Assembly: GCA_963664405.1 (NCBI GenBank)
Contig: OY761158.1
Coordinates: 5,440,001-5,504,000, forward strand
DNA from: Thermoanaerobaculia bacterium
Lineage (GTDB): Bacteria > Acidobacteriota > Thermoanaerobaculia > Multivoradales > Multivoraceae
Length of the DNA stretch: 64,000 nt
Direction of reading: 5' to 3'
The position numbers were made by a program, and so were the translations under genes. Below, one piece after another: positions 16,004-35,299 of the stretch (within the stretch, counting starts at the first letter, position 1; each line of letters opens with the position of its first letter). Below the pieces are notes generated by a model that was not told where the DNA came from, did not search any database, and worked only from the letters and a program-made list of their open reading frames with translations.

Positions 16004-16030
16004 TGTCACCTTCCACCGAATTTCGCGACA
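16004..16030 (+). other. 27-bp putative recombination site S1
   Basis: TGTCACCTTCCACCGAATTTCGCGACA. Confidence 0.75.
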
Positions 16031-16061
16031 TCACTACATTCGGAGGCGTCGCTCTTCGTGC

Positions 16062-16589
16062 CTACCATTTGGTCCGGAACTCCTGCAGCACGAACTCGGG
16101 GCTCATGTTCAGGTAGATCTCGGTCGTCGACAGGTGATCGTGGCCGAGCATCATCTGCAAGGCGCGTGTCGAGCCACCCTTGTGAATCCACAGAATCGCA
16201 AAAGTGTGACGCAACACGTGGGGACTGACGGGACGGGAGATCGTCGCCGCGTTGGCGACGCGTCGCACGGTGCGCTGAGTGGTCCGCGCCGAGAAGTCGA
16301 TTGTCTCGTGGAGGATGAAATAGTGCTCGAAAAGAGCCCGCACACGGTCCGAGAGAGGTACAACTCGGAGCTTGGTGCGCTTTCCATAGGGGCCACCCTT
16401 TCCGTACAGCCGGATGCAGCGCTGCTGCCACTGGATCTGGTTCCTGGTCAAGTTGGCCAGCTCGGAGACGCGCATACCCGTCTCGAGAAGAGCCCAGATA
16501 CAGATCTTCTCCTCCATTGTCTCGCAGGCGTTGATGATTCGATCGGCTTCCTCAATCGACAGTGGCTCACGTTTGTGTTGGTATCTCAT
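16062..16589 (-). CDS. Minimal tyrosine recombinase (catalytic domain only, ~175 aa)
   Basis: TGMRVSE (R), GKG (K), HVLRH, LGH, TEIY (Y); too short for an N-terminal core-binding domain. Confidence 0.92.
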   Translation of the reverse strand: MRYQHKREPLSIEEADRIINACETMEEKICIWALLETGMRVSELANLTRNQIQWQQRCIRLYGKGGPYGKRTKLRVVPLSDRVRALFEHYFILHETIDFSARTTQRTVRRVANAATISRPVSPHVLRHTFAILWIHKGGSTRALQMMLGHDHLSTTEIYLNMSPEFVLQEFRTKW

Positions 16590-16663
16590 GGCACAGTCCA
16601 TCAGAGACTGCGCGGGAGGAAATCGCAGCTCCTCCCTGAGAGCCGGCTCTAGAGAGCTTTCTG

Positions 16664-16716
16664 GGTACTCATTCGGATCGAGCTATGCGTGTCGTAGTGC
16701 GCCACATAAAGCGACA
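16664..16716 (+). other. Linker motif plus site S2 (16690-16716)
   Basis: ..CTCATTCGGATCGAGCTATGCG-TGTCGTAGTGCGCCACATAAAGCGACA. Confidence 0.8.
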
Positions 16717-16723
16717 TCCTCTC

Positions 16724-32309: not shown

Positions 32310-32466
32310 TCCTATCCTCCTGGCACGGCCGGTCCGCGTCTCCGGAGACGGGGCTACCCCAGCCGTGTACTCGACATAGAAAATCTTGTTGATGATTTTA
32401 CTCCTCGTCGGTCCGAGCAACGACATGTCGGTCACGTACATTGGAAAAGGACCTGCGCTCGACTAC

Positions 32467-32493
32467 TGTCGCAGTCCGCCACATTTCACGACA
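32467..32493 (+). other. Site S15
   Basis: TGTCGCAGTCCGCCACATTTCACGACA, 3 bp from the kinase 5 stop. Confidence 0.8.
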
Positions 32494-32496
32494 CGC

Positions 32497-35214
32497 TCAG
32501 TCGGTGGGCACGAGGCGCTCGAGCTCTTCGAACCAATTGGTGACTAGCGTAACGTGGTCGGTTCCGTAGGAGTCCGTAGCGGCCGGGAACACGACGAAAC
32601 GCCGTCCGTCACCGGCTACGTCGAAGCCAGGGTATGGCTCCCCCGCGAGGATCGGTACCAGCAGGTAGCCCTCGTCGAGAACGGCCTCCGCTATGCCGGG
32701 ACGGAGGACCCCGTTGCCCTCTTTCACAAGGACCCTCGCAATATGGGACCCGGTACCGAAAAAGAGCGCGCGACCATCGGCCGACCACTTCGGATACCTG
32801 CCTCCGTTCGTCGAGATCATTACTCGCCCAGCTCCGTCGGGAAAGGGTCGGACGTAGATCTGGAAGATCCCCGATACGTCCGACTCATAAGCTATCCAGC
32901 GACCGTCGGGCGAGAACATGCCCATACTCTCGTTGGCCTGCGTGTCAAGGAAAGCATAGGGCTCGCTTTGGCCGTCCAACGGGAGAATCCAGACGTCCTC
33001 GTCGACGACGTCTAGCTTGGCTCTGCCGTAGGCGAGAAATCGACCGTCGGGGCTGTAGGAGGAGGGGAAGACGCTGTGGGCGCCCCCGATCAGCGTTTCG
33101 ATCTCTCCCGATCCGTCGGCTCGCGTCTCATAGATGGCGTTTCTCTGGTTGCGCTCGGAGTTGAAGGCCAGCGTCTCGCCGTCGGGCGACCAGGCCACGT
33201 CGTCGTCTCGCGCAGAGTCGTCGGTCAGCCTAGTCTCGGTGCCGCGCTCCAGGTCGTAGACCCAGATGTCGACGTTGCCATCGCGGAGCTCGGTCACGGC
33301 GAGTCGCGACCCGTCCGGCGACAACTGCGGCGAGCCGTAGAGCCCCGGCGACAAGAGCGGTGTGTCGTCTCCCCGCAGATCGACCCACACCGCTGGAAAC
33401 TTCTGCTCCTCCGCTCCGCCGCTCAAGTAGACAAGGGACCCGGAGTCGGAAAGGTCGTAGCCGGAGTTCTCGATGTTGTGCAGGGTGAGGACGTTCGACT
33501 GGATGGGCCCAAAAACTCCGGATTGGATGGGGACAGCTGACCCCTTAGTTGTGAGCTCTTTCAGGTCGAAGGCTACGGCGAAGAGATCTTCGCCCGCGCG
33601 AAATACCAGTTGGCCTGTGGGGAGGTAACGGCCATGAGATCCGTTGGCGCGAACAACGCTTCTCTCCCGAGTTTGCAGGTTCAAGGCCTCGATGCTCGAC
33701 GGACCCGAGGATCCCTGCCACGTTGTGAAGGAAGTAAACAGGAGCGCTTTGCCCCCTGGGAGCAGTTGAGGTGAACGGTGGGTGTGCTCGCCCTCGGCGA
33801 GCTCAGTCATCAATTCGGGCTCGCCTCCGTTTGCGGAAACTCGGACCAAGCCGCCCGGGGGGCGAGCGTTGAAGACGATCGTTCCGTCGCGGGTCCAGGT
33901 GCCCGTCGACCAGCTACTCGCCGCAGTCACAGTCTGCGGTGCGCCGCCGCTCACCTGAACCTTGCGTAGCTCCGAGTCGGTGAAGAAGGCGACCCAGTCT
34001 CCATCCGGAGAGAAGAAGGGCTGGAAAACGGATCCGGAGGCGAGTAGTCTGCCCTCCAACTGGTCGAGTTGGCGCACGTAGAGCTCTCGAGTCGGCGCGC
34101 CGTCGGCCGAAGGTCTGTGCACCACATAGGCAAGGTCGCACCCGTCTGGGGACAGCACGGCATCAAGGACAGCGCCGCCGTCGGCCTCGGCGATTTTGAC
34201 GTCCAGATGGAGACTCGGACCCATTGGTGCCGACGGGCGATTCACCAGCCAGGCGAGTGTTGCAAGAGTGACTACGGTCACGACGCCGAGAGCAGCGACC
34301 ATGGGAGTCGAGCGCCAGAGAGCTGTCGTCGGCAACGAGTTTGCCAGTCCATCGGCCCCGGGCTTCTGAAGCAAGAGCCGAGCGTCGGCAATGTCGTGTA
34401 GCCGATCGCGCCTCTTCTTGGCCAGACAGAGTTGGAGCAGACTCTTCATTGAAGAAGGTACGTCGGCGGGCAGGGAGTCGAGCTCGGGGTCGTCCCGAAG
34501 CACCGCTGCCAGGGTATTAGGAGCATCCTCACCTTGGAAGGCGCGCTTTCCCGAGAGAGCCTCGAAGAGGCAGACTCCGAACGCCCAGATGTCAGCTCTC
34601 TCGTCGACTGTCTTGCCGGAGGCCTGCTCGGGTGCCATATACGCCGCTGTGCCGAGGATCTCGCCGCGCTGCGTCGCCGCCAGCGTCAGAGTAGGCGACT
34701 GTGACTGACCCGGAGCGGCGGGCTCCTGCGGCGGAGCCATCGCCTTGGCCAGCCCGAAATCGAGGATCTTGACGTTGCCGTCTTCCGAAACCTTGATATT
34801 CGCAGGCTTGAGGTCGCGATGGATGACGCCCTTCTCGTGGGCTGCTTCCAGGCCCTCCGCGATCTGGAGAAACAGCGGTAGAGCTTCGTCGACGGGTATC
34901 GTGCCTCTCTTGATGCGCTCGGCGAGTGTCTCGCCTTCGACCAACTCCATGACAAGGAAGCTAGTGTCCCCTTCCTTCTCGAAGCCGTAGAGCGTGGCGA
35001 TGTTGTTGTGATTCAGTGAGGCGAGGAAGCGAGCTTCACGCTCGAAGCGCGCCAGCCGATCAGGATCTTTGGAGACCTCATCGAGAAGCAGCTTGATTGC
35101 CACCTCGCGACCGAGCTTCGTGTCCTTGGCTCGATACACTTCTCCCATGCCTCCTGCGCCTAGCGAGGAGACCACTTCGTAGTGGCCGAGGCGAGTGCCA
35201 GCTTCTAGCGCCAT
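32497..35214 (-). CDS. Ser/Thr kinase-TM-beta-propeller protein 5 (intact)
   Basis: [10 protein letters not shown] start shared with paralogs; [16 protein letters not shown]40-like repeats. Confidence 0.92.
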   Translation of the reverse strand: MALEAGTRLGHYEVVSSLGAGGMGEVYRAKDTKLGREVAIKLLLDEVSKDPDRLARFEREARFLASLNHNNIATLYGFEKEGDTSFLVMELVEGETLAERIKRGTIPVDEALPLFLQIAEGLEAAHEKGVIHRDLKPANIKVSEDGNVKILDFGLAKAMAPPQEPAAPGQSQSPTLTLAATQRGEILGTAAYMAPEQASGKTVDERADIWAFGVCLFEALSGKRAFQGEDAPNTLAAVLRDDPELDSLPADVPSSMKSLLQLCLAKKRRDRLHDIADARLLLQKPGADGLANSLPTTALWRSTPMVAALGVVTVVTLATLAWLVNRPSAPMGPSLHLDVKIAEADGGAVLDAVLSPDGCDLAYVVHRPSADGAPTRELYVRQLDQLEGRLLASGSVFQPFFSPDGDWVAFFTDSELRKVQVSGGAPQTVTAASSWSTGTWTRDGTIVFNARPPGGLVRVSANGGEPELMTELAEGEHTHRSPQLLPGGKALLFTSFTTWQGSSGPSSIEALNLQTRERSVVRANGSHGRYLPTGQLVFRAGEDLFAVAFDLKELTTKGSAVPIQSGVFGPIQSNVLTLHNIENSGYDLSDSGSLVYLSGGAEEQKFPAVWVDLRGDDTPLLSPGLYGSPQLSPDGSRLAVTELRDGNVDIWVYDLERGTETRLTDDSARDDDVAWSPDGETLAFNSERNQRNAIYETRADGSGEIETLIGGAHSVFPSSYSPDGRFLAYGRAKLDVVDEDVWILPLDGQSEPYAFLDTQANESMGMFSPDGRWIAYESDVSGIFQIYVRPFPDGAGRVMISTNGGRYPKWSADGRALFFGTGSHIARVLVKEGNGVLRPGIAEAVLDEGYLLVPILAGEPYPGFDVAGDGRRFVVFPAATDSYGTDHVTLVTNWFEELERLVPTD

Positions 35215-35272
35215 GACTTGGCGACATCTTACAGTCGCCCGTGGGATCAGCGGCTCAGAGCTCGATCTGTGC
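35215..35272 (-). promoter_or_regulatory. Conserved kinase leader with putative -10 TAAGAT
   Basis: Similar copies at 19404-19463, 26729-26787, 31001-31060; diverged copy at 23889-23949. Confidence 0.55.
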
Positions 35273-35299
35273 TGTCGCACCTCACCACAGAAGACGACA
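35273..35299 (+). other. Site S16
   Basis: TGTCGCACCTCACCACAGAAGACGACA. Confidence 0.8.

Follow-up and report, generated by a model that had tools for sequence, protein, structure and literature searches.

Organization of the Locus

The window analyzed here is a stretch of 64,000 nucleotides from a Thermoanaerobaculia bacterium (G000:C1:5440001-5504000), whose genome consists of one 6.78-Mb contig with no plasmid present. Between 15.9 and 35.4 kb, this window contains the gene of a 179-aa tyrosine recombinase along with those of five Ser/Thr kinases with PD40/TolB-like propellers, a 153-aa open reading frame (ORF), a cupin and a DUF3047 protein, all bracketed by copies of a 27-bp palindromic site. 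Sequence comparisons indicate that this region is one of seven cassette arrays and that, together, these arrays probably represent a new cassette-shuffling system.

Read on the plus strand, the sites follow the pattern TGTCGY-N4-CRCC-N7-RCGACA, which is matched 14 times in the window when one mismatch is allowed, always on the plus strand and within positions 16004-35299. The expectation for this motif is 0.03 (100 shuffles), and none of the 100 shuffled sequences reached 14. Scanning the 64-kb window revealed no additional copy outside 16004-35299. In gene direction, the site reads TGTCGY-N7-GGYG-N4-RCGACA and is thus composed of two 6-bp inverted arms surrounding an invariant, off-centre GGYG. 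Two core types are distinguished: GGCG, designated B' (CGCC on the plus strand), and GGTG, designated A' (CACC on the plus strand).

The initial annotation had listed the same 14 intact sites, which were recovered at exactly their proposed starts, including the three copies with a left-arm mismatch (16004, 23950 and 28225). It had also reported a fifteenth copy, at 19520, split by an insertion sequence (IS). Both ends of this site were indeed found around an IS110-family element, the first 21 bases at 19520-19540 and the other end, GGAAGACGACA, at 21100-21110. Three further copies had been called degenerate: the one at 35366 is so, while 15907 proved to be a variant site with other arms and 31118 a right half-site only. 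The common orientation claimed for the sites holds for all 15 but not for the degenerate copy at 35366, which is opposite, and the statement that every bracketed gene lies on the minus strand is correct except for the IS transposase.

The position of the sites relative to genes is also constrained. B-type sites are found 7, 6, 8 and 3 bp past the long ORFs ending at 16724, 21183, 24051 and 32497, respectively. In gene direction, a typical kinase junction consists of a stop codon, 3-10 bp, B', a 39-bp spacer, A', about 60 bp and the ATG; this spacing, already proposed in the initial annotation, holds in the window, and 27 kinase starts of the genome have a site 49-62 bp upstream. The 39-bp spacer includes a small hairpin as well as conserved ATAGC and ATAAG boxes. 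Cassettes without a kinase are flanked by B' on either side.

Regarding expression, the stems of the spacer hairpin vary in sequence between junctions (e.g., GCCCCGAAATCGGGGC vs. CCTCTGAGCAGAGG), and the hairpin at 23995-23976 scored as terminator-like because the T-rich left arm of A' comes next. A TAAGAT box is present about 11 nt ahead of the ATG of kinase cassettes (e.g., 23899-23904 in the window); so close to the start codon, it would imply that kinase mRNAs are leaderless or almost so. A scan for sigma-70 promoters returned one site for 1.7 expected and is uninformative on the cassette leaders, and an Rfam scan of 15000-37000 returned as sole match a chance miRNA (E = 0.32) and nothing relevant.

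Table 1. Sites, genes and inserted element between 15.9 and 35.4 kb of the window. Cassette families F0 and F1 and the two site classes are described in the text.
Position	Strand	Feature	Remarks
15907..15933	-	Variant class-2 27-bp site past the array tail	6-7-4-4-6 layout as in class 1; arms TGGCAC/GTGCCA; match GGCGCACTTTCTAGCGGAAGGTGCCA (GGCGCAC...GGTGCCA)
16004..16030	+	Tail site, CACC core, one left-arm mismatch	In gene direction, class-1 left arm and class-2-like right end GGAAGGTGACA
16062..16601	-	179-aa tyrosine recombinase, bracketed by sites	PF00589, 102.2 bits, residues 16-167
16690..16716	+	B-type site, CGCC core	7 bp past upstream ORF stop; 89 bp ahead of recombinase start
16724..19403	-	Kinase cassette, 2,774 bp site to site	Ser/Thr kinase and PD40 propeller; two ORFs in different frames, 18087-19403 and 16724-18046
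19464..19490	+	A-type site, CACC core	61 bp upstream of kinase start 19403
19520..21110	+	B-type site split by IS110-family element	IS at about 19541-21099, about 1.56 kb, CATAGAAAT terminal inverted repeats
21150..21176	+	B-type site	6 bp past kinase stop
21183..23888	-	Intact cassette gene, 901-aa Ser/Thr kinase	PD40/TolB-like beta-propeller
23950..24042	+	Junction	A-type 23950-23976 (one mismatch), 39-bp spacer with small hairpin, B-type 24016-24042
24051..26728	-	Kinase cassette, family F1	Kinase-PD40 gene as two overlapping ORFs, 26066-26728 and 24051-26219
26788..26880	+	Junction	A-type 26788-26814, 39-bp spacer, B-type 26854-26880
26924..27385	-	Non-kinase cassette, 628 bp site to site	153-aa ORF, no family match
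27482..27508	+	B-type site	Between two non-kinase cassettes
27587..28054	-	Non-kinase cassette, 743 bp	155-aa cupin protein (Cupin_2, 59 bits)
28225..28316	+	Junction of two CGCC-core sites	28225-28251 (one mismatch) and 28290-28316
28317..31060	-	Kinase cassette, family F0	838-aa kinase-PD40 ORF at 28484-31000
31061..31144	+	A-type site and right half-site	31061-31087 and 31118-31144
31215..32441	-	Non-kinase cassette, 1,406 bp	408-aa DUF3047 protein
32467..32493	+	B-type site	3 bp past kinase stop
32497..35214	-	First kinase cassette of the array	Kinase-PD40; listed ORF extends to 35346
35273..35392	.	Array head	A-type site 35273-35299; 93 bp on, degenerate opposite-orientation site 35366-35392

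Since the kinase domain of the gene at 32497-35214 begins at residue 56 of the listed ORF, its start is probably near 35214. The break in the kinase gene at 16724-19403 is probably no assembly error, because public contigs over 16574-18945 match the window with 0 differences.

The Candidate Recombinase

The 179-aa protein is assigned to PF00589 well above the cut-off of this family (27.1 bits). When compared to the archaeal recombinase XerA (PDB 4a8e), only the catalytic domain (residues 104-271) is matched, with E = 4e-28 for the family profile. Residues R44, K68, H128, R131, H154 and Y163, which provide the R-K-H-R-H pentad and the tyrosine nucleophile, do not vary among 30 homologues. No N-terminal core-binding domain was found within the 179 residues, of which 16-167 are covered by the Pfam match, the XerA match beginning at XerA residue 104. 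The protein thus appears, from these alignments, to consist of the catalytic domain only.

No other intact copy exists in the genome, which otherwise has just two fragments, of 35 and 46 aa, one beside array 2 and the other beside a solitary site. The family to which it belongs comprises 1,629 proteins at E <= 1e-10, the best 120 of which are 152-200 aa long, and its members are annotated merely as "integrase", "XerD" or "site-specific integrase". At about 60% identity, it extends to Poribacteria, Aerophobetes, Clostridia, Acidobacteriota, Elusimicrobiota, Nitrospirota and Planctomycetes, and at 43-48% to archaea; members also occur on plasmids of Cardinium, Megaira, Piscirickettsia and Aquicella. 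The passages of PMC8138268 devoted to "simple" tyrosine recombinases describe them as usually containing core-binding and catalytic domains and mention no group reduced to the catalytic domain. Literature searches led to work on integrons and dif modules, and what they returned describes neither such a cassette system nor a recombinase family reduced to the catalytic domain; the datasets of PMC8138268 may classify this family.

Seven Arrays in One Genome

Across the 6.78-Mb genome, 86 exact sites are present. A position weight matrix (PWM) with a threshold of 20 retrieved 107 sites, with a clean score separation at about that number. Of these, 94 fall in seven arrays of 11-23 sites, each with a single orientation, and the genes in the arrays run against the motif when written as TGTCGY-N4-CRCC-N7-RCGACA. 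Six arrays or solitary sites close upstream with a pair made of an A-type site and, 93 bp off, a weak site in inverted orientation. The arms-only pattern occurs 100 times in this genome. Its counts in 400 further genomes of the phylum range from 0 to 14, compared with 0-21 for the reversed-pattern control in those genomes (three of these genomes, G189, G063 and G088, are unpublished and only their pattern counts, 2-5 matches, were used). Exact full-motif sites were found in five of 40 closer relatives, three of them in G008, which belongs to another genus, and one in each of the four others. The contigs of G008 contain solitary sites and a broken recombinase, and no arrays were seen in them, an absence which is not established for an assembly in 240 contigs that is 90% complete.

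Besides kinases, the arrays carry genes for a cupin, DUF3047, DUF1326 (twice), a PpoB2-like protein, CHAD, DUF5916/CBM9 and the recombinase. Array 2 includes both DUF1326 genes, the PpoB2-like gene, a family-less ORF and, on the opposite strand, the DUF5916/CBM9 and CHAD genes; despite these two reversed genes, all of its sites share one orientation. Kinases make up most of the cassettes and vary in their sensor end (PD40 propeller, AAA-TPR).

Palindromes lying ahead of a large kinase family could alternatively be the operators of a dimeric transcription factor controlling a kinase regulon, or promoter or terminator parts, which paralogy would conserve and at which no recombination would take place. 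Consistent with this, A' is located at a fixed 49-62 bp ahead of 27 of the 57 kinase N-termini of the genome, the TAAGAT box follows about 11 nt ahead of the ATG, the arm centres are 21 bp apart and hence separated by two helical turns, and the hairpin with the T-rich arm at 23995-23976 is terminator-like. In contrast, the other 30 kinases have no site within 400 bp, including close paralogues of 46-71% identity located outside arrays. B' is positioned by the upstream stop codon (within 1-13 bp in 23 of 44 cases), and the sites flank unrelated and reversed genes without turning with them. The initial annotation had pointed out that a motif scattered genome-wide ahead of genes would indicate an operator; with 94 of 107 sites in seven arrays and more than half of the kinases devoid of a site, such a distribution is not seen, and the combination of scattered sites, a set promoter distance and turning with the gene, which typifies a regulon, was not found. 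Two further observations, both detailed below, also argue against operators: near-identical units end inside the site and have random flanks, and the same type of site is found upstream of the recombinase family in other phyla with no kinases near. Collectively, these data make the operator explanation very unlikely.

Sites as Probable Crossover Points

A 3,812-bp unit, comprising the spacer, A' and the gene of a 1,208-aa kinase-AAA-TPR protein, is present in array 0 (28161-31995) and in array 2 (755749-759583). Its two copies are 99.8% identical, with 8 mismatches. At both ends, the limit of identity falls within the GGCG core of the flanking site, at positions 12-14 in the upstream B' and at 17|18 in the downstream one, and the 80-bp flanks outside the unit have fallen to the random level (26% and 25% identity). 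Other cassettes recur as well. Family F0 has six copies in five arrays with 86-92% identity, F1 has four copies and F2-F4 two each, and their neighbours differ. F0 and F2 are in reverse order between arrays 0 and 2, and F3, 830 bp long, has copies of 99.0% identity among different neighbours in arrays 2 and 4. At a smaller scale, the 66-bp B'-to-A' module of the window junction 26788-26880 is found again in other arrays, where its partners differ on either side.

The point at which identity is gained or lost was also followed over pairs of sites. In pairs that are alike downstream (at least 92% over 36 bp) and unlike upstream (less than 45% over 60 bp), the last mismatch is at position 13 in 19 of 59 cases, and 25 more have it at positions 20-22. 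When the upstream side is the one that is alike, the first mismatch is at position 18 in 9 of 18. When pairs were picked by their far flanks only, 18 of the 27 with the same downstream sequence switch at site positions 11-20 of a 167-bp search interval. In these comparisons, the sites behave as crossover points, and the view of the loci as cassette arrays is well supported in silico.

Arrays of this kind might also result from tandem duplication, unequal crossing-over and gene conversion among kinase paralogues, in which case the 27-bp elements would be passive. The uniform length of the cassettes (19 units of 2,754-2,806 bp), the high similarity of the kinase 5' leaders and the large size of the kinase family in the phylum (at least 8,000 matches at E <= 1e-30) are what this scenario would lead one to expect. 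The exchange boundaries, however, fall in conserved blocks of 4-6 bp, which are too short, so that homologous exchange does not account for them. In addition, unrelated genes have the same borders, copies are located in arrays megabases apart, and the arms-only pattern is at background in the 400 other genomes, as far as pattern counts indicate. Passive duplication is therefore scarcely probable as the origin of these arrays.

In the F0 cassettes (28317-28484 in the window and the other five), the long kinase ORF ends about 150-170 bp ahead of B', and a conserved short reading frame (...VLEMFSEGG) terminates 10 bp ahead of this site. This frame could be a frameshifted C-terminus or a small second gene.

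Association of the Site With the Recombinase Family

To what extent the site accompanies the enzyme can be judged from homologues in other genomes. In 90 loci (641 kb; 55-92% identity, many phyla), exact TGTCG-N17-CGACA sequences are found 47 times, for a rough expectation of about 0.6 from base composition, and 45 of the 47 lie upstream of the recombinase gene, often paired 95 bp apart. With at most one mismatch, 66 sites are present in 72.5 kb upstream vs. 5 in 76 kb downstream, and 44 of the 90 loci have at least one. Loci without a TGTCG-type site contain palindromes of the same length whose arms covary, namely TGGCG/CGCCA (L122) and GTTCGC/GCGAAC (L016 and L017). Among the 40 closer relatives, G008 is the sole one with a close homologue, 53-75% identical and broken, and also the sole one with several exact sites. 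The putative link between recombinase and site rests on this association.

Two metagenome contigs, L091 and L092, encode a recombinase 92% identical in protein and 87% in DNA, with B' at -118 and A' at +107 of the gene, as in the window. Their homology to this genome extends from B' to the recombinase stop codon only, with other neighbours on both sides: another cassette upstream and, downstream, a head-like half-site, A' and a kinase start. The recombinase unit therefore has a different context in a near relative. According to the initial annotation, an invariant gene order would speak against shuffling; gene order is not invariant, as seen both from this unit and from the neighbours of the cassette families, which differ between arrays. 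In a synteny comparison aimed at an empty counterpart of the locus, the acetamidase adjoining the array head was found in only 3 of 24 relatives, on unrelated contigs.

The sites could be true recombination sites served by another enzyme (the host Xer, the integrase of an IS91 element, an IS110-type recombinase or a lost enzyme), the 179-aa protein then being a cassette or a plasmid-type resolvase. The genome has further tyrosine recombinases, about 26-29% identical by tblastn and 30-35% in a second comparison, one intact copy of the 179-aa protein would have to serve seven arrays, an IS91 element with an integrase is inserted in junction spacers about 18 bp from sites, and IS110 copies insert at the site core. 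Many homologues are moreover found beside ParA/RepA with only one or two sites. Yet TGTCG-N17-CGACA tracks the 179-aa family across phyla, directly upstream of the gene and with covarying arms, and G008, alone among 40 relatives, combines several exact sites (three) with a close homologue. The ends of the IS91 and IS110 elements are their own, and these elements are found next to or within sites instead of at cassette borders. The 6-bp arms and 27-bp length are unlike the 11-6-11 layout of dif recognized by Xer. Hence, a different enzyme is an unlikely alternative to the 179-aa recombinase.

Proposed Mechanism

In the cassette-shuffling system proposed here, each cassette would be bounded by 27-bp duplex sites, each 6-bp arm of which presumably takes one recombinase monomer, and strand exchange would take place at the off-centre GGYG. 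The GGCG of B' is located directly after the cassette stop, and the GGTG of A' about 60 bp ahead of kinase starts. As all the sites of an array have the same direction, recombination between two of them is predicted to excise a circle with one site, and re-entry of this circle at any site of any array would move or copy the cassette. The recombinase encoded at 16062-16601 is most probably the enzyme and would act in trans on all arrays. We infer that it binds and cuts these sites, as we infer the exact cleavage positions, the circles and present-day activity.

Several observations weigh against this proposal. Pairs with the same far-upstream sequence switch within the site in only 1 of 12 cases, the rest doing so at -75 to -9 or +27 to +95. 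When these 12 pairs were inspected, three switch exactly at GGCG|N4 and others lose identity at the stop codon or have indels; the misfits are thus partly explained by the ungapped comparison and partly by identity ending at the stop codon. The site pairs are also not independent, because they are drawn from few families. Furthermore, the N4 block can vary (e.g., CTCT vs. AGGT) between otherwise identical contexts, so that an added assumption is needed, that of heteroduplex in the overlap region. Some recombinases tolerate heterology, and N4 variation would fit an overlap region with tolerated heteroduplex.

The enzyme raises similar reservations. Its one intact gene, placed at an array tail, is to be set against seven arrays, and at 46 of the 90 homologue loci, no TGTCG-type site is present in the kilobase upstream. 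At most of these loci, the sites number one or two and form no array, at least three sites being found in L091 and L100 only, and several homologues adjoin ParA/RepA; the usual job of the family may be plasmid resolution. In L016 and L018, a ParA-like gene starts immediately after the homologue, and the order in L100 is site, gene, site, 95 bp, site, gene, recombinase, ParA, RepA. Plasmid resolution or maintenance may therefore be ancestral, and arrays special to this lineage. Within the window, two of the five kinase genes are split (16724-19403 and 24051-26728), which means that the array is decaying at least in part.

Public sequencing data are uninformative for this proposal. Six runs share 29-71% of the words of the window and 15 more have small shares; the marine, sediment and sponge runs with such small shares carry no information on habitat. 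In Logan contigs of four runs, the pieces with 100% identity end at repeats, and the listed joints, with sides of 19-32 letters inside kinase paralogues, are uninformative; as contigs break at repeats, circles, deletions and order variants are not readable from these data, in which neither an excised circle nor an empty site was seen.

Regarding the setting of the homologues, those of L100, L016 and L018 adjoin ParA and a RepA-type initiator on plasmid-like contigs. In L100, the region with three sites and two small genes (L100:7451-13491) forms a mini-array downstream of a BstXI-type restriction gene. Another homologue (L137:7251-13346) is located among a Shedu-like nuclease gene, an IS66 transposase and a TIR-TPR gene, in a defence-island-like setting.

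Comparison With Known Recombination Systems

The system is integron-like in its working, yet it is not an integron. As in integrons, a tyrosine recombinase is associated with arrays of single-gene cassettes bounded by short same-direction sites, and excision as a circle followed by re-insertion, predicted here, would shuffle their order. The two also share varied cargo, a few reversed cassettes and IS110-family elements aimed at the sites, the latter paralleling the IS1111-attC group of integrons. In silico, the cassettes are units bounded within sites, as those of integrons are. The enzyme, in contrast, scores 68.3 bits with the integron-integrase model TIGR02249 (cut-off 265) and 47 bits with PRK15417 (cut-off 435), and the match covers only model positions 238-298, the last ~60 residues. 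It has no N-terminal domain and is encoded at the array tail in the same direction as the cassettes, whereas intI adjoins attI at the array head and diverges from cassettes that are read from Pc. Seven arrays are present in this genome, six of them without recombinase, and the kinase cassettes carry a conserved leader and seem to be self-expressed. attC sites are folded structures of 57-141 bp, long imperfect palindromes (R''-L''...L'-R') with GTTRRRY. Judged from site structure and the Rfam scan, no attC features are present, the sites being 27-bp duplex-type palindromes (TGTCGY...RCGACA). B', the 39-bp spacer and A' were also considered as one attC-like folded site, which was rejected as the two N15 interiors are not complementary by eye. 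The view of the initial annotation that the sites are neither attC nor dif/pdif-like is in agreement with these scores, with the 6-bp arms and with the direct repeats.

dif is a 28-bp site with an 11-6-11 layout (XerC arm, centre and XerD arm). The array sites differ from it by conserved arms of 6 bp and by being all direct repeats. The dif modules of Acinetobacter plasmids are reported to be gene modules bounded by ~28-bp sites, shuffled among replicons and targeted by IS elements (PMC6449649, PMC13141974, PMC10132070). They resemble the present cassettes as discrete modules with sites of similar size made of two arms and a central region, and use the host XerC/XerD with alternating site orientation on plasmids. 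Here, instead, a candidate dedicated minimal recombinase is associated with direct repeats in chromosomal arrays. Archaeal XerA (PDB 4a8e and 5hxy) is the closest solved relative of the enzyme, whose best NCBIfam match is recomb_XerA_Arch. The full-length XerA model (NF040815) gives 117.3 bits for a cut-off of 220 and is matched over positions 92-256 of 263 only; unlike XerA, the protein has no core-binding domain, and no sign of a role in chromosome dimer resolution was seen.

Simple-site plasmid resolution systems of the Cre/loxP type resemble the setting, which looks ancestral, of the homologues located beside parA/repA with one or two palindromic sites just upstream (L100, L016 and L018), whereas in this genome the sites are multiplied to about 107 and bracket genes. 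Shufflons and invertases (Rci and FimB/FimE) likewise combine small tyrosine recombinases with many short sites in one locus, but their sites are inverted and DNA segments are flipped. FimB-type models match the recombinase weakly (E = 2e-6 to 4e-6), and no inverted sites were found other than the degenerate ones at array heads. Since the array sites are direct repeats, the locus is not a shufflon, and excision and integration are predicted rather than inversion.

To our knowledge, integrons are the only well-established platform in which single-gene cassettes are handled by site-specific recombination, and dif modules are a second, plasmid-bound and still debated case. If the proposed system is real, it would be a third one, and cassette platforms would have arisen more than once, from simpler parts. 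Its enzyme would be different and much smaller, its sites plain duplex DNA and its cassettes self-expressed, and one chromosome would carry several arrays. The enzyme family and site type are new; recombinase-served cassette arrays as such are known. We give an even chance to the broader proposal that widespread recombinases of ~175 aa, reduced to the catalytic domain, act on simple 27-bp duplex sites and, here, form a genome-wide exchange network shuffling sensor kinases in cassette arrays independent of integrons. If so, a function would be assigned to a large unnamed recombinase family, and a compact pair of recombinase and 27-bp site would become testable as a tool. It would also account for the expansion and variation of the kinase repertoire in some Acidobacteriota-like genomes, with sensor kinases of varied ligand-binding ends forming, in effect, a recombination-driven receptor repertoire.

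Inserted Elements and a Second Site Class

Two kinds of mobile elements are found at the arrays. IS110-family copies, located at 19541-21099 in the window and at G000:C1:779206-780632 and 4985431-4986863, have the 27-bp sites as their targets. For the window copy, the break in B' falls between positions 9 and 10; for the two others, it coincides with the GGCG|N4 boundary, which is the inferred crossover point. The latter two are ~64% identical over their first 121 residues and 33-66% in later segments. The half-site at 31118 is preceded by sequence resembling the right flank of another IS110 copy.

The second element, of 2.6 kb, combines an IS91-type Y2 transposase and a full-length phage-type integrase. 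Its five copies (G000:C1:34789-37391, corresponding to L175:789-3391, 41380-43976, 596927-599449, 615191-617709 and 887165-889767) are 94.6-99.9% identical, and several adjoin array heads or interrupt the 39-bp spacer of a junction, at a distance of ~18 bp from the site. The integrase linked to this element was considered as the array enzyme and set aside as the main explanation, but is retained within the alternative of another enzyme discussed above.

A second class of 27-bp sites has the arms TGGCAC/GTGCCA and GYGG-AAGG as core plus N4. It is represented 21 times in the genome (2 in the control), and 12 of the 21 copies lie within 200 bp of a class-1 site, that is, one of the sites described above. 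Some sites are class-1/class-2 hybrids, such as the tail site at 16004, which is read as one because it joins a class-1 left arm to a class-2-like right end. Class-2 or hybrid positions include G000:C1:3979822, 3979931, 5002394, 6514872 and 1037011, as well as 15907-15933 in the window. These sites may be the trace of a second recombinase specificity or attL/attR-like products.

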